Of a stretch of DNA of 54,354 nt, positions 1-42,195 are shown in pieces (position 1 is the stretch's first letter; every line of letters begins with the position of its first letter). The position numbers and the translations under genes are program-made. The stretch is from a virus (taxonomy: Duplodnaviria > Caudoviricetes): positions 1-54,354 of the IMG/VR virus record IMGVR_UViG_3300037796_000233; one strand, 5' to 3'. Under the pieces are notes generated by a model. It ran no database searches and was not told where the DNA came from. It worked only from the letters and a program-made list of their open reading frames with translations.

Positions 1-2
1 GC

Positions 3-131
3 CGGGCAATCGAATATGTCCCGCATATGGAGCAACCTTACTTCCTCAGTTATATAGATGACGAAAAAGGAAAACGCTTCAAGGAACAAGTCCTTGATAT
101 AGAGGATTTGGACCGGATGCTCGCCAAATAA
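3..131 (+). CDS. 3' end of a plus-strand gene of unknown function (partial)
   Basis: Open frame RAIEYVPHMEQPYFLSYIDDEKGKRFKEQVLDIEDLDRMLAK* ending at TAA 129-131, followed by a terminator; not in the ORF track. Confidence 0.6.
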   Translation, partial: RAIEYVPHMEQPYFLSYIDDEKGKRFKEQVLDIEDLDRMLAK

Positions 132-148
132 CCGGCTCAACTTCCGAT

Positions 149-188
149 AAAAAGCCCTTTCCGGGAAACCGGAAAGGGCTTTTTATTT
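149..188. terminator. Bidirectional intrinsic terminator
   Basis: AAAAAGCCCTTTCCGG-GAAA-CCGGAAAGGGCTTTTT: perfect stem with A/T tracts on both sides, between convergent genes. Confidence 0.9.
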
Positions 189-256
189 GGGTTCCCCGGC
201 GTGAGAGGGGTTACACCGGGGATGGAAACCTTCAAAAAGGGGGAAAGGAAGGTTTC

Positions 257-412
257 CTAACTGTTGGCCTGAATTGCCCGCCCTTGCTTTTTCGCCTTCC
301 CTCTGGCCGTTTCTTTTGAGCGTTTATCGCCCGGTTTGTAATGATATTTCTTTCCGTTATCGCCCCACCGAAAGTATGGACCTTGTTTGTCCCTTCCTTT
401 AACGACTGGCAT
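257..412 (-). CDS. Small basic phage protein (51 aa)
   Basis: MPVVKGRDKQGPYFRWGDNGKKYHYKPGDKRSKETARGKAKKQGRAIQANS*, preceded by an AAGGAGG RBS; better supported than the tracked ORF 232-471. Confidence 0.75.
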   Translation of the reverse strand: MPVVKGRDKQGPYFRWGDNGKKYHYKPGDKRSKETARGKAKKQGRAIQANS

Positions 413-440
413 ACAGTTCCTCCTTTCTTTTTTCTTTCGT

Positions 441-503
441 CGTTTTCCACTTTGTTTTCACTTCTCTCCAACGCAAATATATTTCCGAATAGTAGGACAC
501 AGG
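441..503 (+). repeat. 63-bp repeat, exact reverse complement of 32803-32865 (candidate late promoter or protein-binding element)
   Basis: CGTTTTCCACTTTGTTTTCACTTCTCTCCAACGCAAATATATTTCCGAATAGTAGGACACAGG matches the reverse complement of 32803-32865 base for base. Confidence 0.9.
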
Positions 504-522
504 CCCCTGTAATGAAACGGCT

Positions 523-1140
523 TTAGATGCCGGAAAAATCGCTCAAAACCTTGATGTAATCTCCGATCAATAACGGATATCCGTGTATTGGCCTTTTTTT
601 TGAGGATAACCAACCCCGTTTTAAGGCCATAAGAAACAAACCCCTCAAAAGCCTCACGTCTCTCTCGTTATATTCGAGCAACTTTTCATATTTCCCTTTT
701 TTGTAAATGTCCTCCGGCCTTTCTTTGATCCTGATTTTTCTTTCTTTTAGGTTTGCTGATGATAAATCATTTAAACTCAAGCCGCCCGGTGAAAACCGTT
801 TTATTGAATCCACAATAGGCAACCTTAACGCTTTCGACTTTGCCCACAAAAATAAATCAAATTCAATCCAACCGCCCGTCCCGTTATAGACCCGAAAGCA
901 ATCTGTAGACCCTATCTGTTTGTATTTTCTCCTTTCGCCTAAAACGACTTTTGAATCAAACCATATACCATTAAACGAAACCGCTAATGAATTATTGAGA
1001 TAAGCCCGAAAAAAATTTAAAGACCTTGTGTGTAAGAAATGAACAAATGAATTTCCCGAAAACGTAAAGACCACCCCAGACAAAAACCTTTTATCTTTAT
1101 AGGTAGTTTCAACATCATAGATTTTAATATCTGGTTTCAT
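523..1140 (-). CDS. DnaQ/RNase H-like 3'-5' exonuclease family protein (YprB/RNase_H_2-like)
   Basis: ExoI YDVET, ExoII SFNGIWFD and ExoIII YNERDV motifs. Confidence 0.75.
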   Translation of the reverse strand: MKPDIKIYDVETTYKDKRFLSGVVFTFSGNSFVHFLHTRSLNFFRAYLNNSLAVSFNGIWFDSKVVLGERRKYKQIGSTDCFRVYNGTGGWIEFDLFLWAKSKALRLPIVDSIKRFSPGGLSLNDLSSANLKERKIRIKERPEDIYKKGKYEKLLEYNERDVRLLRGLFLMALKRGWLSSKKRPIHGYPLLIGDYIKVLSDFSGI

Positions 1141-1738
1141 ATGAAACTATTATCTTTGGATATGAAATATAGTCCGGTTTTTCTCCTTTTGCCGAAAACC
1201 GGAATTCAAGCCGCCTTGCCGTATTTGGTGGGATATCGCCCAGCCTTATATAGTCCCCATCTGCATCGAATCCTCCACCAATAGAAACAAAAGCGGTTTG
1301 GTTATCGTCCACTATTTCTTCGATGCCTGAAAGTCCGTCGCCATCTACTCCTGATGATCTTACTTGGATCCATTTTCCGGTAACGATTTCTTGACCGAGT
1401 TCTTTTGATTGGCCGGTAAAAAATCCGTTTCCGCAAGCCGCAGTAAGTTTGATATTGGTAAGTATAACGCCGTTGTCTGGTTGTCTCGATACAGACCAAA
1501 GGAAAATCTCGGCCGCAATTTCAGAGCCATCAGAGGGAACAACCTTCATAATTCCATTAAGTTCTTGGCCCAGTTCATTTTTCCAAATCAAATCAACATC
1601 GTATTTGAGCGCACCAAAACTATCAGATAAAACGAGAGTATTTTGCCGATGCGCCCTGAAAACGTCTCCAAGATTTAATCGGCCAAGATCGACCGAAATG
1701 TCCTCAATATCGACCTGTTGAAAAAGTAATATAGTCAT
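1124..1738 (-). CDS. Putative tail/virion structural protein
   Basis: 204-aa acidic, beta-rich ORF overlapping both neighbours in the tail module. Confidence 0.5.
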   Translation of the reverse strand: MTILLFQQVDIEDISVDLGRLNLGDVFRAHRQNTLVLSDSFGALKYDVDLIWKNELGQELNGIMKVVPSDGSEIAAEIFLWSVSRQPDNGVILTNIKLTAACGNGFFTGQSKELGQEIVTGKWIQVRSSGVDGDGLSGIEEIVDDNQTAFVSIGGGFDADGDYIRLGDIPPNTARRLEFRFSAKGEKPDYISYPKIIVSYETRY

Positions 1739-2256
1739 GACGGAATCCCGGTTTCAAGAGAGCACCAGACCTCTAAATCACCGCCAATATCGACATTATG
1801 CGGCTCAGCAAAACGAGCAACCGCATAAAGAATTCCCTCCCCTACTATGGTGCCAAGGTCAGAAGTCGAAATCAAACCGGCACCGTATATTGTCGCTGCT
1901 TCCGTAAAGGCAAAAACGGCGGGATTATCCGTATTGGTCAAAATAAGTTCCGGTGAAGATGGTTTGTTCCAAGCCGGTCGCTGGGAATTAGAAAGCCCTA
2001 AAACCTCCGTATATTTCAAGAACATTTCATCATAAAAATCCTCGAAATCCGGCACAACATCGTTACCAAAAAGGAAAATGTACCAACCGGACAAAGGTGT
2101 TAACCCGTAAAAGTTTGTATTGATTGTATAAATACAACCTTCTCTGGTTACCAAATTTGGGTTCCGATTTACGGTCCAAAGTTCTTTCCCGTTTTCTGAA
2201 TATCTTGCTGACCAAACCGTTTTAGGGACAAATATCTTTTCCATATTAAACCTCAA
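1735..2256 (-). CDS. Phage tail-fibre-associated structural protein
   Basis: NLVT..G / WY..L / YTE..RPAW / IYGAGL / GILYAVARF pattern seen in small tail proteins; position in tail module. Confidence 0.55.
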   Translation of the reverse strand: MRFNMEKIFVPKTVWSARYSENGKELWTVNRNPNLVTREGCIYTINTNFYGLTPLSGWYIFLFGNDVVPDFEDFYDEMFLKYTEVLGLSNSQRPAWNKPSSPELILTNTDNPAVFAFTEAATIYGAGLISTSDLGTIVGEGILYAVARFAEPHNVDIGGDLEVWCSLETGIPS

Positions 2257-2974
2257 ATCTGCTTCTATCGGAAAAAAGCGAAAAAAGTTTGGCTTTTAAG
2301 ACCGCCCCTAAACCATTATCGTCATGATTCAAAAAAAGGGCTTTATCTAAATCCGATTTCAAAACCGGCTTGTCATTGGAATAAAAACCGGCTTTGTGAT
2401 GAGCGATATTAAAAACCGCCTGCGGCGCATAAACTTCGTTAACATAAGCTGTGCGAGCAAGCCCGGCCCCGGATTCTATGAATGGATACTTTTCAAAAAC
2501 CCGGTTCAGCTTGCGTGATTCGTAGTAGTATGGCGTGTGGGTTTCCCCGTTGAGTATCGTTTTTCCGTTAGACCGTAAAGCATGTGCCGTTCTCCATAAT
2601 TTCCGCCCCCAATTGTTCCTTTTGGGGTTTTTTACTGTCGAAAGATCGCCTAAGCAATAAGGGGTTTTTACTTGACTATAATCGATTGGTGTTAAAAGAT
2701 AAATATCGTCATTCGACCAGATAAAACTTTCCAAGTTTTTTATTGCCCAACGAAATTTTTCGCCGTGAGTTTGTTCTGGATTCTTTCCCTTATCGTCAAA
2801 ACGAACATGAAAGACATTGTCTATCCAATCAGGAAGATATCCGCCCATTATAAAAACCCTTACATCTTCGTCAAAATCGGCAATGAAATTTTTCTCCCAC
2901 GACCGAAGGACAAGCCGGATTTCATCGCCCCATTTTGACTCCATTAAAGGGATAACGATATTAATTGGCTTCAA
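2246..2974 (-). CDS. Stealth-family-like hexose-1-phosphate transferase
   Basis: EIRLVLRSWEKN, FIWSNDDIYLLTP, HTPY and FLNHDD resemble Stealth conserved regions CR2-CR4. Confidence 0.65.
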   Translation of the reverse strand: MKPINIVIPLMESKWGDEIRLVLRSWEKNFIADFDEDVRVFIMGGYLPDWIDNVFHVRFDDKGKNPEQTHGEKFRWAIKNLESFIWSNDDIYLLTPIDYSQVKTPYCLGDLSTVKNPKRNNWGRKLWRTAHALRSNGKTILNGETHTPYYYESRKLNRVFEKYPFIESGAGLARTAYVNEVYAPQAVFNIAHHKAGFYSNDKPVLKSDLDKALFLNHDDNGLGAVLKAKLFSLFSDRSRFEV

Positions 2975-3600
2975 TTTATAGTCCTTTCTTTAAGTTTTCG
3001 GTTGATTTCTTCCGCCCGATCTCCGAATTTGGATTGCCAAAACCCTTTTTCCGCCCGATTAAGGTTCACAAACAGGGGATCTTTTCCGCACCTCATATCG
3101 TATTTCCTTGAAAGAACATATGGAAAATAAAGAAAATTCGACTCAATTGCTTTCATGAAAGCCCATTGGTCTTCTCTGATCTTTCCTGAGGCAATAAACT
3201 CCTCCATCCACTCGATATAAAGGGAGGTTTTAACCACGAGACGTTGTGTGGAAGATTGCGCCAATGGGCGATTCTTTTCCATTTTCCCGGTTATCGTTCC
3301 GTCATCCCTTACAAATTGGAAAAGAATGGCATCATAGTCCATAAAATTATTCAAATCCGGTAAAGGATTCAACACTTCATCGTCACTATCCAAAAAGAAA
3401 AGCCAGGGCGTTGTAACTTTTCTTGCGGCCTTAAGTCGATAAGTTCCGATATTTGTGTTTAACCAATCAACTCCTTTGTTATAGCTAACGAATAGAGGAT
3501 ATTGATTCAAATAATTCATCACGCCCTTTATCGTATTTTGAGAAAGAGAATGATGAGCCGCCATAACCGTTACTATAGTCAAAAGTTCATATTTTTTCAA
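2971..3600 (-). CDS. GT-A fold glycosyltransferase (GT2-like)
   Basis: VTTPWLFFLDSDD DxD motif and later ED motif; 4-bp overlaps with both neighbours. Confidence 0.7.
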   Translation of the reverse strand: MKKYELLTIVTVMAAHHSLSQNTIKGVMNYLNQYPLFVSYNKGVDWLNTNIGTYRLKAARKVTTPWLFFLDSDDEVLNPLPDLNNFMDYDAILFQFVRDDGTITGKMEKNRPLAQSSTQRLVVKTSLYIEWMEEFIASGKIREDQWAFMKAIESNFLYFPYVLSRKYDMRCGKDPLFVNLNRAEKGFWQSKFGDRAEEINRKLKERTIN

Positions 3601-4859
3601 TATTTCCCCTTTCCTTTATTGACCCTTCTTTCTTCAAAATCGTTTACCCAAATAAACGGTCCCGAAATTGGTTCCATATTCAAAAACGGACATAGTTTTC
3701 CCCAACTATCCCCCTTTTTTATGTCCATTATCAAAAGTTTATCCATATCGTTTTTGAATGAATCCATAACGAAAGTATGATGGGCCAGAAAGGCTTTGAA
3801 GTATTTATCTTTATTGAACTGAAAAGACCCATAACAAGTTTCATGCGCTCTTTTCGATATCGCCTTGAGCTTTTGCGATCTTCTTTGTTCTGGAGGAAAA
3901 GCCTTAAAAAAGATTTCTGCTCTTTCAATCCATTCCCTTGGGTCTCTATAAGTGTAAATATATTTGGCGTTTGGAAAACGGCGCTGGAGTTCGCCCTTTA
4001 TGAAAAGTTCCGTGACGGTTATATCCGCCGAAAAATCAGACCGTTTGATCCTTTTTATCCCATGGGGATACCTTACAACCGAATAACCCAAAAGGCGCAT
4101 CGCTTCTACCAGTGATGTTTGCCCCGTTCTGGATAAACCTATTCCAAAGACCTTTTCGTTGAATTTCGTTTCTTGCCTATCTTTATCGAGACGGCTTGAA
4201 AGCCTTACGTGTTGGTGTTTTGAGTTTGATCCCCAACCTTCGTCTTTGTTCATTGTTCTCCGGCCTTCCCAAATGGTTTTTATTGGCCGGTTTTCAACTC
4301 TTAATTCATCAGAATGAGGTTCGTGAAATAAAACACCATCCGGAAATATTCTTTTTTTCTTTCCATTCTTAACCAATCGGAAATAAAGGTTCACGTCACA
4401 ATCGCAATAAGTCTTTATCTTTTCGTTGAAACCGCCTACACCCCAAAAATCTTCACTTTTCGCAAGAAATGTCCCTGGTGTTCCCGGATAAACTTTATTG
4501 CTATATCCTCGATAAAAGCCGCCGGAATTTAAAAAGCCAAAATCAATCTTTCTAAATATATCAGGGGCAAAGGTTATATCGGAATCAGTAGAAAGTAGAA
4601 ACGGTGCAGTGCAAAGCCTTGCCGCCAAGTTTCTGCTTACTGCCATGTCATATTTTTTTTCGCCGTCAACCCTTACTATTGTGAGTTTGTTAAAAAAACT
4701 TTCTGATAGTTTTTCCTTTAGGAAAGTTCCAAGATTTATTTTTGAGGACCAGTCCACCAAAACTATCTCTTTAAATCTAAAAATCTCCCAATTTTTTAGG
4801 GATTTCAAAATAAAATCTTCACGGTCCATACTTACTGCGCAGATGGAAATTTGATCCAA
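3597..4859 (-). CDS. Glycosyltransferase (GT2/GT7-like)-sulfotransferase fusion
   Basis: N-terminal VLVDWSS, SRNLAAR, TDSD, GGFNEK; C-terminal [15 protein letters not shown] (PAPS-binding loop), YTYRDP.EW and GDSW..LCPFL, typical of Sulfotransfer_4-type domains. Confidence 0.75.
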
Positions 4860-4875
4860 CTTAATTTTCCTTTCT

Positions 4876-4904
4876 TTCCTGGCCGGGATTTTCCCGGCCA
4901 GGAA
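4876..4904. promoter_or_regulatory. Perfect 13-bp-stem hairpin between the SG-repeat gene and the GT genes
   Basis: TTCCTGGCCGGGA-TTT-TCCCGGCCAGGAA; followed on the minus strand by the RBS rather than a U-tract. Confidence 0.7.
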
Positions 4905-4913
4905 GGTAATTCA

Positions 4914-6005
4914 TTAAGTCCCCGAACCCGAACCCGAACCCGAACCGGAACCCGAACCGGAACCCGAACCGGAACCCGAACCCGAACCGGAACCCGAACC
5001 CGAACCGGAACCCGAACCGGAACCGCTGGCCGAACCGGAACCCGAACCGGAACCGCTGGCCGAACCGGAACCCGAACCGGAACCGCTGGCCGAACCGGAA
5101 CCGGAACCCGAACCGGAACCCGAACCGGAACCCGAACCGGAACCGCTGGCCGAACCGGAACCGCTGGCCGAACCGGAACCCGAACCGGAACCGCTGGCCG
5201 AACCGGAACCCGAACCGGAACCGCTGGCCGAACCGGAACCCGAACCGGAACCGGAACCGGAACCCGAACCGGAACCGACTTCAAGTTCATCAATAGAATT
5301 CTGAAGATGGGTCTGAGCATCTGCAGCAGAAACAAGCGTGCGGCCATCCCCGAAAGTATCGATTGCGGATTGAACCACCGTGTCACTCTCGAAAACCGCT
5401 GGATCACGGTCAAAATCAATAGACTTTCCAGAGCAAAAATCCCTCACGCCGGATGGAATTGAAATCCCCGTCGCTGGATCGTTATCAGCATCGATACTTT
5501 GAAGAAAACGGGCAATATTTACAACCCGCTGGTCCGTAACGTCCACCGCTCCGTCCACGATGGATAGCGGTGTGACTGCATCTTCGGTCGCCATCGCCTT
5601 CGTTCCAAGCGTAACATCACCGACTTTGAAGGTGACCGTTTCACCCGGCTTGTATTTGAATTTTCCGCCGTTTTCTGTAAACCCGGAAAAGGAAAGGCTT
5701 GAAAAGGCAATTCCATCAACTGGCGAATCGACAAAAACTGCCTCTGAAATTGCCCTACGAAAAGCCGCCCCGGCCACATGGTCGTCCACACCATAAACGC
5801 CCTCGAAAGAATACAAGACCAGGATCAAATCGTCATCCGCAACCTGGGTATCGTCCAACGTAACGTCGAAAGACCCATCAACGGAAAGACTTTGGCCTTG
5901 CCCTAACAAAACCCCTCGATTTGCCGCCAAAAAAACGTCCACATTGGCGGCAGCCTCAAAGGTGTTTCCGTTTTTGTCCTTTAGGACACCATCAATCTTA
6001 ATCAT
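4914..6005 (-). CDS. Putative virion protein with a surface-protein-like domain and C-terminal Ser-Gly repeat tail
   Basis: [43 protein letters not shown] domain, then about 119 aa of (GS)n with occasional A; GGAGG RBS. Confidence 0.75.
4921..5277 (-). repeat. Tandem hexamer repeat encoding (Gly-Ser)n
   Basis: GGTTCC/GGTTCG units with interspersed GCCAGC on the minus strand. Confidence 0.95.
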
Positions 6006-6016
6006 TTTTCAACCTC

Positions 6017-6874
6017 CTAATTGCGAAAAGGGTAAAACGTAAGGGCACCGCCCGGTCTGAGGGCATCGCCATTCAAATATTCATACGGGAAAAGCCTCAA
6101 TTCATCTCCCGGTCTTAGGGCATCGCCCAAAGGATAAATCCTTTTGTTCACGTCTTCCGGCCCCGGATAAAGTTTGAGATCATTCCCCGGTCTTAAGGCG
6201 TCACCAACCAGGTAAACGTCTTTCTCAACGTCTTCCGGTCCCGGATAAAGCCTCAATTCATCTCCCGGTCTTAAGGTATCACCGACCAGGTATGGAACAC
6301 GGTTCACGTCTTCCGGCCCCGGATAAAGTTTGAGATCATTCCCCGGCTTTAAAGAATCCCCTATCAAATACGGAATTCTCTCAACGTCTTCCGGCCCCGG
6401 ATAAAGTTTGAGATCATTCCCCGGTCTTAAGGCGTCACCAACCAGGTATGGGGTTTCGACCGCAGTCAGGGAAAAGTCGGAATAATAGATTTGTCCATCA
6501 TGTCTTACTTTTAAACGGTCTTCCGTCGTGTTATACCAAATATTTATCGATACATCGGTTGGATCTTCCGATACAAACGAAATACCAGGCCCAGTTTCCG
6601 TCCCGGCTGCCTCCAAAACAACAACCCGATCTTCTAATTGGTCAATATAAAGAGAAAGGCTGCCTATAAGTGTTTCATTTGTCTCGATCTGACTTTCAAG
6701 AGTATTGATCTGGCCCTGTAGGGAGGTATTTTCTGATTGTAAATTCCCTACTTGTACCTGAAGCAAAGATAAATCCGAAAGGATTTGCACCACTTCGTTT
6801 TCCAACAACCTTTCGGCCAAACTTTTACAGGGTTCACCGGCAACCGGATTGTCGCAAACCTTATATGGATTCAT
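6017..6874 (-). CDS. Putative tail-fibre-like protein: coiled coil plus 26-aa repeats
   Basis: Heptad coiled coil at about aa 20-90, EDP..IWYNT linker, then YLVGDALRPGNDLKLYPGPEDV repeats. Confidence 0.6.
   Translation of the reverse strand: MNPYKVCDNPVAGEPCKSLAERLLENEVVQILSDLSLLQVQVGNLQSENTSLQGQINTLESQIETNETLIGSLSLYIDQLEDRVVVLEAAGTETGPGISFVSEDPTDVSINIWYNTTEDRLKVRHDGQIYYSDFSLTAVETPYLVGDALRPGNDLKLYPGPEDVERIPYLIGDSLKPGNDLKLYPGPEDVNRVPYLVGDTLRPGDELRLYPGPEDVEKDVYLVGDALRPGNDLKLYPGPEDVNKRIYPLGDALRPGDELRLFPYEYLNGDALRPGGALTFYPFRN
6020..6451 (-). repeat. 78-bp (26-aa) tandem repeat, four full and two partial units
   Basis: PYLVGDALRPGNDLKLYPGPEDVERI and variants, visible in both DNA and protein. Confidence 0.9.
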
Positions 6875-6875
6875 T

Positions 6876-8000
6876 TTAATTTCTCACTCCGAAATAAAGA
6901 TTGACTGCCCCGCCGCCTTCTATTCCAGTAACGTGTAAAGAAACCTTGTCCGCCCCCAAAAGATCCCAACCAAGCATGGGTGAAGGATATTTTGAAGCGG
7001 ATTTAAAGGGAAAATCAACAGAAGATGCAGACCTTTTTGTTTCCAAAACACCTTTAATTTCTTGTATTTCCCGTTTTTCCCAATCCATATTAGAAAACCA
7101 AGGTTTATTGTAAGTTGGATCGTCTCCATCTTCCCAAGAAGGAATCTTGATATATTCATATTGATCCGAAGTAAGCCTTGGCCCCGGTAAAAGTTGGATC
7201 ACTATGTCCCTTCCCTCCGGCCAATCATCAGAAAGGGTAAAGGCCTGATTTATTATTTCTGAACAATCGGGGAAATAATAGGTGCCATATTTACTCCAAC
7301 TGGACGGGTCAAACTCAACGGAATCGCTCCACAATGAATCATCCCAATGATCTTCTCCGGTGAGGGAAAATGGGTCTTTTGTTGGATCTATTAAAAAACG
7401 CAAATAAATTTTGCTTAGTGGTTCATCGGAGCCAATGTCGGAATAATCGAGTTTAAACCGCAATTTAGCATCGGAAACAATTGCCCCTTTAGAAAAGGGC
7501 ATTGGATACGAAAAGGACATTCTATACTCATCCCCGGCGTTAGACCAGCCAACCTCACCCGAATAAGTTGGATTGATGGTGTTATAACTTATTGACCCGT
7601 AATAATCATATTTATACCAGGCCGCATAATAACTTCCGTCACGCAACTTTAAATCATAATCGGTTTCTTTTTCCAAAAGTGCATCAAGGACGTTTTTCAC
7701 AATTGGCGTAATGATTATTGCGCCGCCCGGCGAATTAAAAACAGGTTGAACGACCAATTTTGACTTATCGTGCGCGTTTAACCAGAGCCAAGGCAATTCG
7801 CCGTCTAAATCGAAAGAATCTGCTGCGGCTATCGTTAGAAAATTCGTCCTTTGATCTTGAAAAACGACCGGCTCAGAAGAAATATCAACGGGTTGAATAA
7901 GGGTTTCTGTGCCATCAATAGAATACCGGCTTGGCCGCATAAGATAACTTTTTCCACTCAATGCGTCTTTTATAACGGCATATCGGATTTCTTCAGACAT
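6876..8000 (-). CDS. Putative tail/receptor-binding protein, possibly with a DNRLRE-like carbohydrate-binding fold
   Basis: Acidic, aromatic-rich; YRMSFSYP..KGAIVSDAKLRF segment; position in tail module. Confidence 0.45.
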   Translation of the reverse strand: MSEEIRYAVIKDALSGKSYLMRPSRYSIDGTETLIQPVDISSEPVVFQDQRTNFLTIAAADSFDLDGELPWLWLNAHDKSKLVVQPVFNSPGGAIIITPIVKNVLDALLEKETDYDLKLRDGSYYAAWYKYDYYGSISYNTINPTYSGEVGWSNAGDEYRMSFSYPMPFSKGAIVSDAKLRFKLDYSDIGSDEPLSKIYLRFLIDPTKDPFSLTGEDHWDDSLWSDSVEFDPSSWSKYGTYYFPDCSEIINQAFTLSDDWPEGRDIVIQLLPGPRLTSDQYEYIKIPSWEDGDDPTYNKPWFSNMDWEKREIQEIKGVLETKRSASSVDFPFKSASKYPSPMLGWDLLGADKVSLHVTGIEGGGAVNLYFGVRN

Positions 8001-8011
8001 TTATCCCCCTT

Positions 8012-10165
8012 TTAAATCTCAAATATTCTCATGCTTTTATGATGTTCGTAATTGAAACCAAAACCGGATGAATCCCAAATCATATCCCCGAAATATTGAG
8101 GAAGGTTTCCTGCGTAATCTCTTCTTATTGTATCCATATATTGTTTATAATATAGGGTTTGAGAACCACCGCCGGAATACCAGGTAAATGACCACCAAGA
8201 TTTAGATAACCAAACTGGACCCGTAAGGGAATATTGAACAACGCCCCCAAAATCTACATCTGAATATATTTCGAGTTTAACGCCCTCGGAAAGTAAAAAA
8301 CCGTTAAGATTAATCCTCCAATAGGAAGGATTCATCCAACTAAGGTAATTGACCAAATCTCCAAAGCAAGTATCCTCCCTTATGTCTCTTGCTTCGTATG
8401 GTGGTTTAAAAATAAAATCATGCGCACCAGCCTGTTCATCTTCACCGCCTACTCCCGGAACCGTTGACTCTCCGCAAGGTAATTTAAAGACCATTTGAGA
8501 TACGCCAGGTTCATCGTAATAACTATTAGGCCACCTCGCAAAATGAATTATTTCTCCTTCTTCTATAATTCTTTGCGGTATATCTCCTGTATATATTTCA
8601 GAAAAATCTTCATTGTTATTTCCGTTAAATGCTTGTGGGTGCCAATGAAGAACTGATTCTTGCGAATAAGGGGCTTTTTCTCCCATTATCCAGCCTGTAG
8701 ATAAGTGCGCGATTTTAAATGTAAATTTCGGAATATAGATATCAAATTTGTTTATTTGAAAACGGCTTTCCGGTTTCCACCATTCTTCTGATTCAAGTTT
8801 TTTATATCCCGAAAGGACATGGTCACGCCCCTCGACAGTTTTTGTTTGTGCTTCCCCTAATCCGACCCCTATGTTCATCCAATATCCGTCATAATCTATC
8901 GGCATGCTCAAATAAAGTTTCCAAGGGAATTCGCTATCTTTTTCTCGGTCATATTCTAATTTTTCGTATAGTATTTCATTTTGATTTGAATCGTAAATAG
9001 TTATAGTTGGATCATCGTCGGGTGTTATGTTTCCTTTGTCTATTATCACGCCAGTTGACGCCTCGCCCCAATTAAGTTTAAACTCTAAAGGACAAGGTCT
9101 TGGATTACTCCAAAAGCCTACGTTCAAAACATCTTCATAAGCGCAATTCCTAAACATTATGACCACAACGTCTCCCGGTTTAAATCCAAAACCGTCACAC
9201 GTCATGTATTGGGTCATTACTTCAATCTCGGCCAAGTTCAAAATATCGATCTTTAATTTATCACGCCCCAAAACCTCTTTCACTATCCCGGTTGTAAAAA
9301 GTGGGCATTCTTCCTGCCAACGCTCATTTCTAAGGCTGGAAAAGAAGTATTCATAGGCCAAACTATACGGATAACCTTTTGCGATCATATCGGTGGAAGT
9401 AAGCCAAATCTTATTCGGTGAATATTTATAAACATAATCCTCTTCACCTTCACCCCGTTCCCCGTCGTCTTCCTTTTCCCGGATAACCCCAAAGGTATTA
9501 CAATAAATTGTAAATGTATCATCAACCGTTCCGCCTTTTGCACCGGATAAGGAAGTACAACCTTGATTCTTTAAGGCAGAAAGGCCCATTTCATCATATT
9601 CAGCATGAAGAATATTCGCCCGATGTCCCGGTGATTCCATCCATAGGTCAAAAACCTCCTTATCTGTCCTGGCCCAACCTACGTTTTCACCTGCTTCGTA
9701 ATCGGTTGCCCCGTCGATATATCCGCTGGCCTCTATCCGGTCAAAAACAGAAGGATATGGGCCTCCGGCCTCATCGTGTCCCGCATAACAATTATGAGCC
9801 ATAAATCCGGCGTGTAATCTTGCCGCCGTCGTTAGCTTGGGATTCATCTTAAGTCTTTGAAGTCCTTCGGTGGTCCTGGCTTTATTTATCATGCCAAGAA
9901 TATTTCCGCCCGAAGCACCTTCACTTGATGGTTCAGTTCCTTCCCTTGTGGCTGCCAATTCATCATTAGGTAAAACTCGGATATTTCCCCAAGTTTTCAA
10001 TGAGTTTGGGTTTAAATTCGATATTTCTACAATTGGAACCACATACTCCTTTTTAAGTGGATCGAGAGTGGCGCATTGCGCAATGATCCGATCCCCGAAA
10101 CCCGGAATTGATATCTTGTATATATTTTGACCGTTATCGGCCCAAACTATCTTTGCCTCAGCCAC
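8012..10165 (-). CDS. Minor tail protein containing a CAP/SCP domain
   Basis: INKAR..GL..L..N..L..AA..HA..M..H / GENVG / WMESPGHRANIL...EMG signature at about aa 88-225. Confidence 0.75.
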   Translation of the reverse strand: MAEAKIVWADNGQNIYKISIPGFGDRIIAQCATLDPLKKEYVVPIVEISNLNPNSLKTWGNIRVLPNDELAATREGTEPSSEGASGGNILGMINKARTTEGLQRLKMNPKLTTAARLHAGFMAHNCYAGHDEAGGPYPSVFDRIEASGYIDGATDYEAGENVGWARTDKEVFDLWMESPGHRANILHAEYDEMGLSALKNQGCTSLSGAKGGTVDDTFTIYCNTFGVIREKEDDGERGEGEEDYVYKYSPNKIWLTSTDMIAKGYPYSLAYEYFFSSLRNERWQEECPLFTTGIVKEVLGRDKLKIDILNLAEIEVMTQYMTCDGFGFKPGDVVVIMFRNCAYEDVLNVGFWSNPRPCPLEFKLNWGEASTGVIIDKGNITPDDDPTITIYDSNQNEILYEKLEYDREKDSEFPWKLYLSMPIDYDGYWMNIGVGLGEAQTKTVEGRDHVLSGYKKLESEEWWKPESRFQINKFDIYIPKFTFKIAHLSTGWIMGEKAPYSQESVLHWHPQAFNGNNNEDFSEIYTGDIPQRIIEEGEIIHFARWPNSYYDEPGVSQMVFKLPCGESTVPGVGGEDEQAGAHDFIFKPPYEARDIREDTCFGDLVNYLSWMNPSYWRINLNGFLLSEGVKLEIYSDVDFGGVVQYSLTGPVWLSKSWWSFTWYSGGGSQTLYYKQYMDTIRRDYAGNLPQYFGDMIWDSSGFGFNYEHHKSMRIFEI

Positions 10166-11261
10166 TTATATATCCCGTTATTTCTGTTTTGCATTCGCTT
10201 CCTTGGGCATAAGAATGCGTAACTGTATGAATTTTTAATGGGTTTAGTTCAGTTGATGAAACTTCATCTTCTATCGTTACCAAAGATCCAACCGAAAGAT
10301 AAGGGTTCATAGAAAGAAGTTCCAACGTAATAAGGTTTCCAAACAAGGAACCATATTCCAAAATATCGTCAGAAAGTTTATCGGCCTTCCAATAAGTATT
10401 TATAAGTCCATTATTTCTGGTGACTTTTCGCCTACCGTATTTGTCTATAATCCCTTGATATGCCTCCTTATGAATGGTTGATTCTTCACCTGCCCCAAAT
10501 ACATCGACAACGGTTATGATTTTTGTAAGGTCAACATCCCGACTTAAAGAGACAATATCTTCAGATCCATAATGAAAATCGGCATTCTCAATCCGGAATA
10601 AAGGAGCATCGCGCCAAACGAAAACCCCGGATGGATCAAAAAAGAAGTCTTTCAACGGACCCAATGCCAGATCGAAAGTATGTATGGCGGTTAATACGGA
10701 TGAATAATTTATCTGCCGATCAATAAAATCAATGTTATCCGTATATGAAAGGCGATATTTAATGCCGGCATTATCGAGCCAATATTGAATCAACTCCTTA
10801 CTTGCCCCGTTAAAATTTGTTGGATAAATTCCGGGCGTGTTTTGGAGGATAAAAGCCAGACTTTTCCCTTTTATCGAAATTGAATTTGAATCTCCATATG
10901 AATATCTTTCTGGTGCCTTCTCCGGAATTCCGGCAAAAATTTGCGTGTAGACGTCCACGCCTTCGATATTGAAACCAAAATAGATATTGACCCTTTTCGA
11001 GATATCTGGAGACAAAACCGAATCCAAAAACCTCGGATTCCAAAGATGGGCGTTTTCCAACGTAAGGCTAAACCCTTCAAGGATTTCGTCTTTGCTAAGA
11101 TTTATTCTGAACGAGGAACAATCGCCCAAAATAAAGACTTCTCCAGCCCCGTTTATCCATTCAACCACAGCCCTCGGTTTTTGAATATTCGAGTTGAATA
11201 TTGCGCTATAAATGCGCCAATCGATAAACTTTATTTGGGTGGAAAGATCGAAAACCCTCAT
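10158..11261 (-). CDS. Tail tip/baseplate hub protein
   Basis: Follows the Dit-like gene; IFAG, FFFDPSGVFVW, IDKYGRR and NPYLSVG..V patterns of hub proteins. Confidence 0.65.
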   Translation of the reverse strand: MRVFDLSTQIKFIDWRIYSAIFNSNIQKPRAVVEWINGAGEVFILGDCSSFRINLSKDEILEGFSLTLENAHLWNPRFLDSVLSPDISKRVNIYFGFNIEGVDVYTQIFAGIPEKAPERYSYGDSNSISIKGKSLAFILQNTPGIYPTNFNGASKELIQYWLDNAGIKYRLSYTDNIDFIDRQINYSSVLTAIHTFDLALGPLKDFFFDPSGVFVWRDAPLFRIENADFHYGSEDIVSLSRDVDLTKIITVVDVFGAGEESTIHKEAYQGIIDKYGRRKVTRNNGLINTYWKADKLSDDILEYGSLFGNLITLELLSMNPYLSVGSLVTIEDEVSSTELNPLKIHTVTHSYAQGSECKTEITGYISG

Positions 11262-11632
11262 CAGATTTCCATTTCCTTTTCGTCTATTACTGAAAACCCA
11301 AACCCGATCATAGCCCTTTTCCCGGTCGCTTGGGAGGTAACAGAAACAATAAGACCTCGATACAGGACGGAACCAACGCCCATTAAACAGATAACATCGT
11401 CAATATCCCTTAATTTTTCCAGCCGGTCAAGGTCTTCTTTTTTACAAACAACGTCGGAAATATTTATGGATCTACCTTTTGGCCGCCCCCAATCTATCGT
11501 TAATGTCTTGCGCCCCAAAGAATCCCGGCGTGTAATTTTCCGGGTAGAACTATCCGAAATTTGCGCCTTGTCAAAATTCAGGATAAGCTCACCGATTTCA
11601 GAAAAGGTTTCTGTCGTTATTATCGCCCTCAT
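11261..11632 (-). CDS. Distal tail protein-like
   Basis: Directly after the tape measure gene; start moved to ATG 11632 (MRAIIT) with a GGGGT RBS, avoiding overlap with the TMP gene. Confidence 0.55.
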   Translation of the reverse strand: MRAIITTETFSEIGELILNFDKAQISDSSTRKITRRDSLGRKTLTIDWGRPKGRSINISDVVCKKEDLDRLEKLRDIDDVICLMGVGSVLYRGLIVSVTSQATGKRAMIGFGFSVIDEKEMEI

Positions 11633-11651
11633 CTTATCGACCCCATACCAG

Positions 11652-11700
11652 ACTATTAGTGGAGTGTTGAAAATCGATCTCGGCACAAAACAAAGTGGAA
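11652..11700 (-). promoter_or_regulatory. Diverged copy of the 63-bp element upstream of the distal tail gene
   Basis: TTCCACTTTGTTTT-N29-AATAGT: same two boxes and same 29-bp spacing as 32803-32865. Confidence 0.65.
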
Positions 11701-11708
11701 TTCGCTCT

Positions 11709-14700
11709 TTAAAATTCGCTACCGAAACATGAAAAGGCTTCAGCTTCAGCCTTGGCAAAAATATCCTCCATAAGCGATTGGACAAGACCTCTTAACCAAC
11801 CTTCAGCATCGCCCTCTATCGAAACCGCTATGGGCCTCAATTCATCGGCCTTCATTAATTCGGTTTGGGTGTTAAGTTTTTCTATTTGCGCATCGGCAAC
11901 TTCCATTTGTTTTGCGGCAATCTTTTCTTGAAGGGCCATCTGTCGTTCCATTAGGTCTTCCATGAACCACTTATCGCTCATATCCTCAAAGTCGGTTGAC
12001 GCAAAAGTCCCGAACATTGACGAAAGAGTATCACCAGCCGTCGCTATTGACTGACCTAATGAATCCATGGTGGCTCTCATTTCTTCCGATGCCGCCCGAA
12101 TTCGATCTGTTTGGGCCTCATACATATTTACGGATTGCTTCATCCGCTCTATATCGAATTCAGCCCTCAGTTCAAGGTTTAATTCCTCCATTTCATTCAT
12201 ATGGCGGACATTTTCCTCTACTATCCGAAGGTCTGATTCAAATTTTTCTTTCTTCAGAGAAAGTTCAAGCTCACTCTCTTCCTCCATTTTCTTTTTCATT
12301 CGCTCTGCTACGGCAGCAGCATCTTGTTCCGCCTGATCCCCGTCTATCCGGACATAAGTTTCTACCCACATGCCCTCTTCGTTTTGAACTAATTCAGTGC
12401 GAAAGTTTTCCAATGCCGCTTGCGCTGCTTCTTCATCATATTCGACCGTGACAGCAGTCTCGTATTTTTGATCAACCAGCTTGTCGAGTTCTTTGTTGAG
12501 TTCCGATATTCTCTGATTGGCGCCCTCCGAATCCGCCGTGATAAGGATTTGTTTTTCCTCTTCCAAATTCTCTATCTGGCGCCCAATTTCCTCAAATTCC
12601 TCATATAGTTCTTGGCCGCCTTCACCCGCCATTAACTTGAGTTGTATTTCGGCCCGCCTATCTTCCAAATGATTTATTTGGCCTTGAACCTCACCTAAAG
12701 CCGCATTAATTTCGTCGATATTTGCCCTGGCTTTTTCGGTTTCAATTTCGAGTTCTACTGCCTTGATTTTGTCTTCAAGGTCCCATATTTTCTGAAGGTC
12801 TGTGACAACCTCTTCCGCTGATTTCAAAACCTTTTCAGAATCGACTTTAACCTCAACTGGTAACCATTGATCACCGAAAAGTTTATATGTGTCTTGGCCC
12901 ACTTTCTTTATCTTGCTTCCATCAGCGGTTATCTCTATTTCAACATAGGTTTCCTCCAACTCGGCGTCAATTTCCTGTGAAACTTTGTAAATTGAATCCT
13001 TATCGGCCATTGCTTTAAATATTACCGCTTTTTCCCCGGTAATTTCAGCCAATTCAGCTTTAAGCCGTTCTCTTTCCTCATCGTTGGTCTCTGAACTCTT
13101 GAGTTTGACCCTGACTTCGTTCTCTCTGGCTGTAATCTCCTGGAGTTCCGCTTGGAGTTCCGCTAATTCTTCACGGTTTTCTACCTCTGTCGACAAAACG
13201 ATTTCTTTGAGGTTTTCTATGGAATCGAGTTTTGCCTGAAGTGATTCTATTTCCTCATCGGTTTGGGCTTTTGAAATCGCAATTTTTATCTCTCGTTGCT
13301 TCTCCGTTAGTTCGTCAATCTGTTTTTGAGCGTTCTCTTTATGTGTGGCATCTACCATGGCAAAGAAAGCCGCTTTCCGATCTTCCGCCACCTTGTCAAG
13401 TTCCGCTGATAATGCTCTTATCTCTTCCTTGGTTTCTGCCGTAGCAAGAGACAATTTTAATTCGGTTTCTTTTTTCTCTAAATCTTGGAGGATTGCCTGG
13501 ACACCTACCACCGTTGAATCGTCGGCCTGTATACCGATCAAAATGTCTTTCTTCTCAGTTACTTCGTCAAGCCTTTTTTTAAGTGAAGCTATTTCTTCAT
13601 CTGTCTCTGCTTTTTCCAACGCCAACCGGATGTTCTTTTCTTCCGCCGTAAGGGTTTCAATGCTCTCCCTTACTTTTTCGAGTTCTGCTGCGGCGTTTTC
13701 CGCGCTGATCCCCTTTATTGCCTCATCCGCTTTCGCTATTGCTTGAACAACTTTATCGGTCCAATTCTCAACGTAATCGACGTTTTGAAAGGCTTCTGCC
13801 GCCATATCGTCGAACATCTGAATTGTACCGTTAAGGCTTTCAATTTCGCCTTCGAGATCAACAAAAGGAAGATAATCAGCCGCTTGAAGAATCCGGCTGA
13901 AGCTATCCAAAACAAAAGCCCCGAATTCACCAACGACCAATTTCAGCGTTTCAAATCCGACTTTTCCCAAATTGATGAGGCCAGCCAAAGAATCGTGGGC
14001 CGCTGCTACGGAAAGGGCCATTGCGCCCATAGCGGTATTTATAACGGTCAAGACCGTTTGAACGGCAGTTCCTTCCTCCGATGCCTCCGCAAACATTCCT
14101 CCGAATTCCGTGGCATAAATCGATATCAATTCCACGTTTCCGGAAAGGATAGAGGAAACATCAGCAAGAATGTTATAAAAACCCCTGATGGACCCTTCTC
14201 CATCGTCAAAACTTCCAGCCATCCCCTTCACGTTATCGACTATTGAACTGAAGGTGCTGACCATAGGTCCACCGATGCCTCCAGTGACCTTCTCCAATTC
14301 CATCATCTTTGTTATAACGCCCCGAATACCGGATTTTTCATCGCGCCCGACTAAATCCAGGATAAGGGGGACAAGGTCTTCACCTATCGTCTTTTTGAAA
14401 ACATCCGTCGTTCCGCCCAGGTTGTTCATAACGACTTCCCACTTTTGGGATTTCGTTGCTGCGGCGTCGATGGCTGCGGAAGTTCCGGTAATGGATTCTG
14501 TGTAATAATCGAAAGCCGCCTGACCTTCGTTGATTATTGTAGCAAGGGTGGCCGCCCTTACGCCAAAAATAGCGATTGCGTCACCGGCAGAAATAGTTTG
14601 TCCGCCAAACGCCCCGATAATTTCGGAAAGGGAATGAGTTTGTGGGTTAACATCATCAAGGGTCAATCCGTATTTGGCCAAAGCCGCCGTTGTGGTATCG

Positions 14701-22509: not shown

Positions 22510-23529
22510 TTAGTCCAAAAGTTCTTTTGTATCAACATCCCGTAATTTCCGCGCTGGGTTCCCTGTCCAAATTTCGCCCTCTGGAATATCTTTCGTGACT
22601 ACCGAACCGGCCCCAATAACGGCGTTTTTCCCTATGGAAACCCCCGGACAAACACAACAACAGCTACCTATTCGGGCAAAATCCCCTACTTTAACCGGCT
22701 GGGGAACAAATTTTTCAACCCGCAAATACGAAAGGATTTTATCATTGGTAATCGTGACCCTTGGGCCTACATAAACGCCCTTTCCAATTTCGGTGTAAGC
22801 ACCGATATTTGAAAACTGAAATACTTTCGTTTGTGAACCAATTGAAACACCTTCTCCAATGAAACAATGATCCCTTATTTCAGACGTTTCATCGATAAAT
22901 ACGTTGGGTCTTATTTTGATATAATATCCAAGAAAAACGGTTGGAGAAATTAAAGCCGTTTTATGGATTATGTTTCCCTTGTTATCGAGATGAACCCCCG
23001 GCTCAATAAGGGTTTCGTTCATTATCTTTACCGGATTGCCTATGTAAATGCCCGGTTTTTCCAATGACCTTGGAACAAACGAGTTTGCCCCAATCGAAAT
23101 ATCCGGACCAATCTCCACGCCTGGCCCGATAATTGCCCCGGCCCCAATCTTAACCCGGTCCCCGATCTTGGCCGGTGAATGGTTCCCTTTAAAATCCGAA
23201 TGAAGGATGACCGCCTTTGGGCCTATGAAAACGTCTTCACCTATAATGGTATCTGGGGAAATAATTGCCCCGGCCTTAACTATTGATCTTGTACCGATCT
23301 TGCAGTTTGAGCCGGTTCGCACAAAACTTCCGATTGTCGCATTGTCACCAATCTCGGTTCCCCGTACTAACTTCACGTAATCACCAACCGTCGTTTTGTC
23401 GCCAATAACAACGTCCCTTTCGATGATTACAAACTCGCCAAGTTTAACGTCTCCGACCGCTTGAAACTGACTTCCCCGATAAACCACGTTTGATCCGCTA
23501 ATCATGACAGCGTTCTCCTTGCTGGTCAT
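22510..23529 (-). CDS. Tandem double hexapeptide-repeat (LbH) acyltransferase
   Basis: Two LbH domains of [IV]G[DE]xxx repeats, ending IGANSFV..YIGNPVK and IGAGSVVTKDIP..TGNPAR. Confidence 0.85.
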   Translation of the reverse strand: MTSKENAVMISGSNVVYRGSQFQAVGDVKLGEFVIIERDVVIGDKTTVGDYVKLVRGTEIGDNATIGSFVRTGSNCKIGTRSIVKAGAIISPDTIIGEDVFIGPKAVILHSDFKGNHSPAKIGDRVKIGAGAIIGPGVEIGPDISIGANSFVPRSLEKPGIYIGNPVKIMNETLIEPGVHLDNKGNIIHKTALISPTVFLGYYIKIRPNVFIDETSEIRDHCFIGEGVSIGSQTKVFQFSNIGAYTEIGKGVYVGPRVTITNDKILSYLRVEKFVPQPVKVGDFARIGSCCCVCPGVSIGKNAVIGAGSVVTKDIPEGEIWTGNPARKLRDVDTKELLD

Positions 23530-29910: not shown

Positions 29911-30144
29911 TCATTTATTCGCTTTTGGTTCGTAAATGAAAACCCCGACTTGATCCGAAAAAGGAAGGTCATGACGGACATCCCCGGAAAGAATCACATC
30001 TGGAATCCCCTTTGGGAAGGCCAAACAAGCCGCTGCCTTGTTGAATTTATGAACGCAATACGGACAAAAGCCAGCCGTTTCAAGGTCACCCGACTTCCAA
30101 GAAAATTTATCGGCCGCATTATAATCTTCTTTCTTTTTTGCCAT
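29911..30144 (-). CDS. Small Cys/His protein coupled to MuF-ART (candidate immunity or partner protein)
   Basis: CxxCxH..CLAFPKGIP..I..G...H..P motif; start overlaps the MuF-ART stop. Confidence 0.6.
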   Translation of the reverse strand: MAKKKEDYNAADKFSWKSGDLETAGFCPYCVHKFNKAAACLAFPKGIPDVILSGDVRHDLPFSDQVGVFIYEPKANK

Positions 30145-36287: not shown

Positions 36288-36495
36288 GAGCAACCCCCTT
36301 ATCGAAAAAACAAACAAAAACCTCTGGCTCTACCTCAAACCCTCTTCCCTCAAGATCGAAATCCCAAAGAACATCCTCAACATCATAACGCAACCCAAAG
36401 GGATCACTCTCTATGGAAGGGGTTTCGCAAACAAATTCGTCAAATATTTCCTTTTCTATTGTCGCCAAACCCCCTCCTTTCGGACTATCCCTCAA
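36280..36495 (-). CDS. Small acidic hypothetical protein
   Basis: 71-aa ORF filling the gap; true start may be a downstream TTG. Confidence 0.45.
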   Translation of the reverse strand: MRDSPKGGGLATIEKEIFDEFVCETPSIESDPFGLRYDVEDVLWDFDLEGRGFEVEPEVFVCFFDKGVARA

Positions 36496-37824: not shown

Positions 37825-38103
37825 TTATCCGTCGTTTTTCTTCTCTGATAAAAGGTCATAACGCCCGACCACTAACGCACCACGAGTGAATGCCTCGAAA
37901 CATTCAGGGTGAATCCCGTCTTCTTCTCTGGCCCAAGATAAAATCCCTTTTATCAAATCCTCGATAATGACCCTTGCGTCGCCTTCTGGGTCATAATGAG
38001 GACAACGATAATGATGTGTCGTAAAAAACTTTTGCGGTTGTCTCGCCCACTTCTGACACTCGCAACCTCTATTAAAAAAGGCTTTTGGATCATCCATTAG
38101 CAT
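37825..38103 (-). CDS. Hypothetical Cys/His protein
   Basis: CEC..W..HH..CP motif; overlaps the ThyX-like stop. Confidence 0.5.
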   Translation of the reverse strand: MLMDDPKAFFNRGCECQKWARQPQKFFTTHHYRCPHYDPEGDARVIIEDLIKGILSWAREEDGIHPECFEAFTRGALVVGRYDLLSEKKNDG

Positions 38104-42144: not shown

Positions 42145-42195
42145 TTGTCTCTCCTTTTGAGTTGGGGCGGGATATCCCGCCCCGGTTTCGGTTTA
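42145..42195 (-). repeat. Leader repeat variant
   Basis: TAAACCGAAACC + GGGGCGGGATATCCCGCCCC palindrome + RBS. Confidence 0.85.

Follow-up and report, generated by a model that had tools for sequence, protein, structure and literature searches.

The window analysed here is the whole of a virus record from IMG/VR (IMGVR_UViG_3300037796_000233, Caudoviricetes), which is 54,354 bp long, of the linear class and 61% complete according to CheckV. Several tidal-flat metagenome runs contain near-identical fragments of it, and none of the sources listed for the region is an RNA data set. At 2246-6005 we find a module of four genes, all on the minus strand: a scaffold protein of 363 amino acids (4914-6005) that ends in a long tail of Ser-containing dipeptides (the Ser-Gly or SG tail), and three enzymes, namely a fusion of a glycosyltransferase (GT) with a sulfotransferase (3597-4859), a small GT2-like glycosyltransferase of 209 amino acids (2971-3600) and a minimal Stealth-family enzyme of 242 amino acids (2246-2974), for which we use the name mini-Stealth. 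An earlier, sequence-only reading of this DNA had described three enzyme genes that overlap each other and overlap onward into further genes. These overlaps are present (4 and 4 nt between the enzyme genes, followed by 11, 4 and 17 nt), and searches with hidden Markov models (HMMs) and structures support all three enzyme calls.

The scaffold protein can be divided into three regions (residues 1-88, ~89-243 and 244-363). The last of these, encoded at 4917-5276 on the minus strand, is a C-terminal tail of the form ([Gly/Ala]-[Ser/Thr])x60, in which the alternation is strict over all 120 amino acids: the odd positions are taken by 53 Gly and 7 Ala, the even positions by 59 Ser and 1 Thr. Two stop codons follow immediately, TAA (4916-4914) and TGA (4913-4911). 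The ending of about 119 residues of (Gly-Ser)n claimed before is therefore a repeat tail as described, with a corrected length of 120 residues and with 7 Ala and 1 Thr included. In the repeat DNA, TRF reports a 30-nt unit in 11.9 copies with 88% matches (4921-5277). The frame of the repeat is real, since the N-terminal 243 amino acids, for which there are 35 homologues (best E 2.2e-57), read on in frame into the repeat and the repeat ends in TAA TGA. Because the double stop ends the protein right after the repeat, so that nothing is linked by it, the tail is not a linker. Compared with the repeat regions of SdrC, SdrD and ClfA in NCBIfam it gives compositional matches (3e-7 to 3e-4) that stay far under the cut-offs.

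The AlphaFold2 (AF2) model of the scaffold is confident for residues 80-240 (predicted local distance difference test, pLDDT, of 86-98) and poor for residues 1-80 (pLDDT 41-62). Accordingly, residues 1-88 appear as a poorly modelled beta region and residues ~89-243 as a beta-sandwich plus a helical domain. No structure in the PDB matches the fold of the N-domain at E<=0.001 (best E 0.016), and a single-sequence pattern scan returned no viral relative of it. The homologues in bacteria have lipoprotein N-termini, where the domain comes directly after the lipobox and a Gly/Ser linker, and they fuse it to CAP, MopE, PKD, lipase or RHS modules. GTDB genomes yield at least 450 matches, mainly in Desulfobacterota and marine Gammaproteobacteria; this distribution would fit a host from the tidal flat, and it does not by itself identify the host. 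One bacterial lipoprotein (P0027) has both the scaffold N-domain and a CAP domain that is 30% identical to that of a 717-amino-acid phage protein encoded further upstream. Since this one protein combines the N-domain with a similar CAP domain, it hints that both phage modules may have been derived from host surface lipoproteins.

The enzyme genes had been said to follow the scaffold gene directly, which is nearly right: the first enzyme gene is set off from the scaffold gene by a spacer of 54 nt, and this spacer contains a hairpin. This GC-rich hairpin with 13 perfect base pairs (4876-4904, minus strand) comes after the double stop, folds with -32 kcal/mol (z -4.4; 0 of 200 shuffles fold equally well), has no T-run downstream and was not called as a terminator in the terminator scan. 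It is possibly an attenuator or an RNA-stability element, which would divide the abundant structural product from the catalytic ones. We also considered whether the SG protein is read through into, or fused with, the GT-sulfotransferase, which is in the same frame, and rejected this on account of the intervening TAA TGA and an AGGAAA, resembling a ribosome-binding site, before the TTG start.

Translated from this TTG, the fusion protein contains a GT-A-like domain (residues ~1-224, with a DSD motif) and a Sulfotransfer_4 domain (residues ~236-410). The latter is firmly assigned by Pfam (PF17784, residues 284-409, 68.3 bits against a cut-off of 22.8, E 1.1e-18), and relatives in the PDB are schistosome and bacterial sulfotransferases (9e-4 to 7e-3). 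A loop motif is invariant in 14 of 14 aligned sulfotransferase sequences, as are K75, T79, R81 and W86; we take this loop to be the one that binds 3'-phosphoadenosine-5'-phosphosulfate (PAPS). The GT half has a sub-cut-off score for GT2 in Pfam (21.5 bits against 23.3, E 2.4e-4). Its motif STDSDI is a DxD metal/nucleotide-sugar motif, and the N-terminal 224 amino acids match proteins annotated with PF00535, PF10111 or PF02709 at up to 42% identity. No homologue that covers more than 49% of the fusion was found in an index of 5.8 billion proteins. In phage records tblastn gave one partial match (a Synechococcus phage GT, residues 1-190), and a single-sequence pattern scan returned no viral relative. 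A later HMM scan did find such relatives: in 23 of 80 viral sulfotransferase loci (see below for their selection) a GT is followed by a sulfotransferase in one open reading frame (ORF). The GT-sulfotransferase architecture is therefore recurrent in viruses, and the earlier blank was due to the search method.

For the small GT the situation is comparable. The earlier call of a GT-A enzyme with a DxD motif agrees with the DSDD in its FFLDSDDE motif and with its GT2 match, which is below the Pfam cut-off (20.6 bits against 23.3, E 4.6e-4); 23 of the 30 nearest Atlas clusters belong to the GT2 set, which is a lead only.

The Stealth call was the boldest of the three and has become the best confirmed, by profile, by family members and by fold. 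The gene (phrog_7999, 2.5e-14) codes for a putative hexose-1-phosphate transferase. As a single sequence it has no Pfam match at E<=0.01 (Stealth_CR2 is found at E 0.28, under the cut-off). In an alignment of 24 family members (A1), the motifs NDD and T-H-x-P (THTP) are invariant, and 22 of the 24 match the conserved region Stealth_CR2, with its elements ELRYSLRS and NDD, at E<=1 (best 2.4e-7); CR3 is matched by one member and CR4 by three, and CR1 is not among the matches. The A1 profile aligns with the catalytic domain of the GlcNAc-1-phosphotransferase GNPTAB (5.5e-6), fly GNPTAB (1.1e-5) and CpsY (2.8e-4), whereby EL..LRS and NDD correspond and THTP falls on the H-x-P of GNPTAB. With the AF2 model (pLDDT 89.2, predicted template modelling score, pTM, 0.88) as query, CpsY and GNPTAB chains occupy ranks 1-9 in Foldseek (3.4e-11 to 3.5e-7, query TM-score, TMq, 0.54-0.72), with Mycobacterium tuberculosis CpsY at the top (3.4e-11) and GNPTAB at 8e-9, and generic GT-A folds (GT6) appear from 5.8e-7. 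Based on the invariant motifs, the CR2 matches, the profile comparison and the Foldseek ranking, the predicted product of 2974-2246 belongs to the Stealth family (Pfam PF11380/PF17101-3). Enzymes of this family move a sugar-1-phosphate from a UDP-sugar to a hydroxyl, as in GNPTAB and capsule polymerases. The phage protein has the fold and the NDD and H-x-P motifs in common with the Stealth capsule phosphotransferases and M. tuberculosis CpsY (PDB 8j2n), but is a minimal version of 242 amino acids whose own sequence scores below the Pfam threshold.

A closely similar arrangement is found on a second viral contig. A scan of the IMG/VR viral contigs with an alignment of the sulfotransferase domain gave 201 stretches that were confirmed by tblastn, of which the best 80 (L162-L241) were examined. 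The top match, L162, lies on a contig of 76.8 kb. Here a coiled-coil protein of 149 amino acids ends in (Ser-Pro)x22-Ser, and 12 nt later a stand-alone sulfotransferase gene begins whose product is 40% identical to that of the window. It is accompanied by a small GT (~35-37% identical over the full length, phmmer 2.7e-32) in which the FLDSDDE motif is invariant with respect to the window, and then by a GH130-like gene, a Stealth-like gene (6e-35 against the A1 profile), a methyltransferase and a cupin. This cassette is followed by tail-fibre genes, one with an Mtd_N domain. At 6395-7504, L162 also encodes a 369-amino-acid homologue of a tail-region protein of the window (374 amino acids, 6876-8000, minus strand), with 29% identity over the full length and 46% over 50 amino acids in tblastn; this is the sole structural neighbour that both loci have in common. 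In total 5 of the 62 window ORFs match the L162 contig (the three enzymes, one tail protein and the tape measure), and neither the capsid nor a 907-amino-acid GT of the window finds a match there (though an empty answer proves little). Given these few matches and the lack of a capsid match, the two phages share little beyond the cassette.

Between window and L162 the repeat partner (Gly/Ala against Pro) and the carrier domain both differ. Common to both is that the sulfotransferase, small GT and Stealth genes come directly after a gene whose product ends in a tail with Ser at every other position. Repeats of this kind are rare near related enzymes: an X-Ser repeat of at least ten units in any frame occurs in 2 of the 80 sulfotransferase loci (L162 among them) and in none of 40 viral Stealth loci (L002-L041, retrieved with the mini-Stealth protein), and one of at least eight units in none of 27 metagenome Stealth loci. 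As only one of the other 79 sulfotransferase loci and none of the Stealth loci carry such a repeat, it is unlikely that the tail and the cassette are adjacent in both contigs by coincidence. Alignment scans with the small GT (A4) and with the 374-amino-acid tail protein (A5) returned the L162 contig alone, and the lineage is thus sampled only twice.

Further contigs show the same enzymes in other combinations. Three of them have a single ORF in which a Stealth domain is joined to a Sulfotransfer_4 domain, in either order (L192, 7155-9236; L206, 7998-9293; L254, 2720-4033), which ties both domains to one pathway. The fusions of L192 and L206 come directly after large fibre-like proteins (747-1327 amino acids) without dipeptide repeats; that of L192 contains a DxD domain as its third and C-terminal one, and another sulfotransferase-like gene is close by. 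The next-closest sulfotransferases, in L167-L169 (one lineage, contigs of 42-165 kb), are located ~2.3 kb from fibre-like proteins with poly-Thr repeats of mucin type. In L167 (3811-8501), and likewise in L168 and L169, two short sulfotransferase-like ORFs and then the Sulfotransfer_4 gene come after fibre-like proteins whose repeats have the form (Thr9-11-Ala-Ala-Pro). Overall, Sulfotransfer_4-type genes are frequent in IMG/VR contigs, often beside fibre genes and in some cases in clusters of sugar enzymes after the tail fibres. In L163, the tail fibres are followed by an epimerase, a GT and genes that resemble, by inspection, radical-SAM enzymes and methyltransferases.

The Stealth loci form a separate picture. 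Apart from two weak tape-measure matches, the 40 viral loci have no other window gene in common, and matches to sulfotransferases or GT7C-like enzymes are likewise found in 0 of 40. As far as they extend, 38 of them (L003-L040) show one conserved order of a head/terminase module in which mini-Stealth is contained: a head maturation protease (phrog_53, 6e-50), a 490-amino-acid protein, a 196-amino-acid protein and mini-Stealth, with a terminase-like gene a few genes on. In these phages the acceptor may be a head protein. Many of their mini-Stealth copies carry a low-complexity N-terminal extension.

The scaffold is best explained as an appendage protein of the tail region of an uncultured siphovirus-like phage, and its gene position suggests that it is incorporated in virions. 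As to the cassette, the reading we favour, to which we would give a probability of about one half, is that it provides alternate residues of the tail with an anionic glycan, probably begun by transfer of a sugar-1-phosphate to Ser. Support comes from the three enzymes in the same orientation, with 4-nt overlaps, right after a perfect (X-Ser)x60 tail, from the enzyme assignments, from the recurrence in L162 and from the three sulfotransferase-Stealth fusions, so that the earlier interpretation is supported in part. The adjacent, co-oriented cassette would decorate the serines in the cytoplasm of the infected cell, before assembly; PAPS, which sulfotransferases need, is cytoplasmic. The Stealth enzyme would take a hexose-1-phosphate from a UDP-sugar and attach it to the hydroxyl of Ser, or to a first sugar, and so create a phosphodiester (as initiation or as branching), the two GT-A enzymes would lengthen the glycan, and the fused sulfotransferase would use host PAPS to sulfate the sugar newly added by its own GT domain. 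What results would be a brush or fibril of densely packed anionic glycan, borne on the virion by the folded N-terminal part of the scaffold. Its length would be ~37 nm if the rise of 6.2 Angstrom per dipeptide of the glycofibril TLP-2 (discussed below) applies to the 60 repeats. Such a brush might serve for shielding, for adhesion or for mimicry of marine sulfated exopolymers, and the scheme would amount to phosphoglycosylation rather than to proteoglycan synthesis of the glycosaminoglycan (GAG) type.

The comparison with animal proteoglycans, from which the label 'proteoglycan' in the sequence-only reading was taken, is one of analogy. In proteoglycans such as serglycin, Ser-Gly repeats are the attachment sites of sulfated glycans. 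The Pfam and NCBIfam matches of the four module proteins include no xylosyltransferase, linker GT or GAG polymerase family, the sulfotransferase is of another family (Sulfotransfer_4) and the compartment would be the cytoplasm instead of the Golgi; the module would thus be an analogue of that machinery and not a member of it. Glycosylated Ser repeats are also known in bacteria: the staphylococcal SD-repeat adhesins (Clf/Sdr) are glycosylated by SdgA/SdgB and the streptococcal serine-rich repeat proteins by GtfA/B. As in the window, a long repeat is involved together with GTs that are encoded alongside and act in the cytoplasm. These GTs are however GT-B enzymes (GT4), against the GT-A-like, Stealth and sulfotransferase enzymes of the window, and no GT-B enzyme of the GtfA/B or SdgA/B type is among the Pfam/NCBIfam matches of the module proteins. 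In addition, there is neither an accessory Sec system nor a sortase signal here, and it is a phage protein that carries the repeat.

Within phages, glycosylation of virion proteins as such is already known. According to one article (PMC12619734, citing Freeman 2023), mycobacteriophage glycans are found at the C-termini of capsid and tail-tube subunits; the GTs encoded by actinobacteriophages are believed to modify virion proteins in the cytoplasm, and shielding has been proposed as the role of these C-terminal glycans (PMC12619734). Phage GT genes within or beside structural genes are likewise present in the window, in L162, in L192 and in L206. In those phages the acceptors are capsid and tail-tube subunits, whereas here the candidate is a dedicated protein with a tail of 60 dipeptides, and the window cassette adds a Stealth phosphotransferase and a sulfotransferase; the comparison is one of function. 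A closer resemblance is seen in TLP-2, a glycofibril from pond water with a dipeptide-repeat core in which every Ser carries a phosphodiester-linked glycan (bioRxiv 10.1101/2025.09.30.679562). In that preprint, the density obtained by cryo-electron microscopy is best fitted by a Ser-linked sugar-1-phosphate, GlcNAc-1-P-Ser (where GlcNAc is N-acetylglucosamine) in Dictyostelium proteinase I is given as a case of Ser phosphoglycosylation, and a sequence search by the authors found no origin, the genes not being known. In both cases a linear dipeptide repeat is made up of a conserved Ser and a small residue that varies, and the transfer of sugar-1-phosphate is the chemistry of Stealth enzymes. 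On the other hand, the peptide sequence of TLP-2 is not known (Ala-Ser was modelled tentatively), no link of TLP-2 to phages is seen, and section 8 of the preprint does not report sulfation. By analogy, tail and Stealth enzyme would be the kind of gene set that a TLP-2-type fibril would need, which is a lead and not a link. That the cassette is the first genetic programme for phosphoglycosylated, sulfated dipeptide-repeat glycofibrils of the TLP-2 class, mounted on phage tails, is a further step which we consider unlikely at present.

A number of results weigh against the glycosylated-tail reading. The earlier reading had proposed to test whether SG-repeat genes co-occur with GT, sulfotransferase and Stealth genes across phage genomes. 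In general this is not the case: of 80 viral loci retrieved by a Gly-Ser codon-repeat pattern, 0 contain a gene for a Stealth enzyme, a sulfotransferase, a GT7C-like enzyme or a small GT. Many of these SG frames belong to giant viruses, are alternative frames or encode short linkers. The specific association recurs in one otherwise unrelated contig, L162. Similarly, the earlier reading held that enzyme clusters occurring independently of Ser-rich proteins would speak against it. This is partly the case, since homologous enzymes mostly come without Ser-rich repeats, as follows from the counts given above (0 of 40 and 0 of 27 Stealth loci, 2 of 80 sulfotransferase loci); 73 of the 80 sulfotransferase loci encode no protein rich in S or S/T within 4 kb, and the L003-L040 mini-Stealth loci show no sulfotransferase, GT7C-like or Ser-repeat match. 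The full arrangement is present at two loci only, and as these also have a tail gene in common they may represent one ancestral cassette and not fully independent cases. With regard to the enzymes, both GT-A domains score under the Pfam GT2 cut-off, the relatives of Sulfotransfer_4 with solved structures are small-molecule enzymes, and bacterial Stealth enzymes are known from capsule synthesis. Moreover, we infer the acceptor, the reaction order, the incorporation in virions and the biological role alike. Finally, no independent contig spans the repeat interior (4914-5246), the copy number of which rests on the record. This last point could be taken to indicate that the repeat is an assembly artefact or non-coding low-complexity DNA, especially since the independent contigs stop at both repeat edges. 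We regard that as hardly credible: short-read contigs from another assembly reproduce 2200-4913 and 5247-6100, including both junctions, with 0 differences, the reading frame of a conserved domain continues through the repeat up to two stops, any shift in the number of 6- or 30-nt units leaves the frame intact, and L162 has an analogous tail.

The strongest rival, although in our view somewhat unlikely, is that the cassette alters a glycan of the host envelope or a lipid-linked precursor, leading to receptor masking, superinfection exclusion or seroconversion, with the SG tail as an unmodified, flexible bystander. Accessory genes are frequently found beside tail-fibre genes, and the homologous enzymes mostly come without Ser repeats. 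The top fold match CpsY is an exopolysaccharide phosphotransferase and the bacterial Stealth enzymes are capsule phosphotransferases; the window also codes for a protein with GT9 (the family of the lipopolysaccharide heptosyltransferases) and GT2 domains and for a hexapeptide acyltransferase. Nonetheless, the otherwise unrelated L162 again has a Ser-dipeptide tail 12 nt before its cassette, a C-terminal repeat of 120 residues that links nothing calls for an explanation, and no integrase or lysogeny gene was found among the ORFs scanned in this 61% complete contig. The same conserved adjacency in L162 favours the repeat-bearing protein over virion proteins in general, such as tail fibres and capsid, as targets of the enzymes, and no other Ser/Thr-rich stretch stands out when the translated capsid and tail proteins of the window are inspected. 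For that more general role, which we judge rather improbable, one could point to the L192 and L206 fusions right after fibre-like proteins of 747-1327 amino acids without dipeptide repeats, to the position of mini-Stealth after the head protease and the 490-amino-acid protein in L003-L040, and to the capsid and tail-tube glycans of mycobacteriophages as given in PMC12619734. Hypermodification of the phage DNA, by glycosylation or sulfation of modified bases, is very improbable. Phage GTs that hypermodify DNA are known, nucleotide modification systems based on GTs and sulfotransferases have been reported in phages according to one paper (PMC10829341), and the window has a weak ThyX match and a SLOG-family protein. 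The cassette however lies in tail-gene regions and not in replication modules (in the window, L162, L192 and L206), and no TET/JBP, DNA methyltransferase or base-kinase family was detected among the 40 window proteins given to Pfam, the contig being incomplete.

Were the tail indeed modified in this way, there would be three novelties: a viral scaffold devoted to displaying glycans densely, a Stealth enzyme of a virus that has a protein as its acceptor, and sulfation of a component of the phage virion. With the tail as acceptor, the module would also provide candidate genes for glycofibrils with a linear dipeptide core, whose origin the discoverers could not trace. A literature search of limited scope turned up no account of a Stealth enzyme in phages, of a phage sulfotransferase with virion proteins as substrates or of a Ser-dipeptide scaffold. 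Should the glycofibril reading be true, viral phosphoglycosylation and sulfation of protein, neither of which we found described for any phage, would come together. More generally, the glycan chemistry of virions and host surfaces in environmental phages may be far richer than the mycobacteriophage examples suggest, because Sulfotransfer_4 genes are common in viral contigs and one phage group has mini-Stealth as a conserved part of its head module.

The surroundings of the module are those of a tail-gene region. All long window ORFs except two are on the minus strand, in the order terminase, portal, a head protein with an ADP-ribosyltransferase-like end, capsid protein (Phage_capsid_3, 1.2e-17), a second glycan-enzyme block, holin, neck and major tail proteins, tape measure (1,233 amino acids, 15410-11709), six tail-region genes and finally the module, which is ~7 kb downstream of the tape-measure gene. 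The genes upstream of the module include those of the tape measure, of a tail protein (phrog_34501) and of the major tail protein. The claim that the module sits inside the virion operon holds as far as the tail-gene region is concerned; its place in the middle of that operon is uncertain. Since the last gene before the contig end (1140-523) has a weak likeness to RNase H/DNA polymerase exonucleases, the module may rather close the tail operon. Megablast of window positions 1-12000 against 50,697 phage records gave no match, and no tRNA genes were found in the window.

Among the tail-region genes, the 717-amino-acid protein mentioned above (8012-10165, minus strand) has a CAP/SCP domain of YkwD-like type (5e-14). 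Directly upstream of the scaffold, a protein of 285 amino acids (6017-6874, minus strand) combines an N-terminal coiled coil with tandem repeats of 26 amino acids. These are 78-nt repeats of the form YLVGDALRPGNDLKLYPGPEDV in 3.8 copies (6091-6451, minus strand). The protein is likely a fibre-like tail protein and shows a weak coiled-coil similarity to the SP-tail protein of L162. On the other side, the Stealth gene is overlapped by 11 nt by the gene of a 173-amino-acid phage protein (1735-2256, minus strand; phrog_8123, 2.6e-9, no assigned function). The Atlas clusters closest to it are viral, and in some of them 26-31% of the members have a PF23140 Gp80 fibre domain (a lead only); going by these sequence relations it is possibly fibre-like as well.

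The second glycan-enzyme block (22510-26221, minus strand), between the capsid and neck genes, codes for two proteins. The larger one (907 amino acids) contains GT9 (heptosyltransferase family, 5.1e-10) and GT2 (1.2e-13) domains and ~380 C-terminal residues without an assigned domain; the smaller one (339 amino acids) is a double hexapeptide-repeat acyltransferase (2e-46). It is possible that this block is a partner pathway of the module, for which it is a candidate only. A LydA-type holin (22496-22131) and a protein with multiple transmembrane segments come after it. Downstream of the portal, a protein of 882 amino acids (30144-32792, minus strand) carries a domain like that of ADP-ribosyltransferase exoenzymes at its C-terminal end (PF03496, 7.9e-15, residues 717-866) and may be an enzyme that is packaged in the head. 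The remaining assignments, all on the minus strand, are a protein with a VgrG3-like C-terminal domain, probably a lysin (36485-37384, 4.2e-49), the weak ThyX match (38097-38828, 2.2e-8), an amidoligase (42193-43350, 1.4e-24), a circularly permuted YpsA SLOG protein (46261-46740, 4e-30) and an ArdC-N plus zincin peptidase protein (52693-53670, 6e-33).

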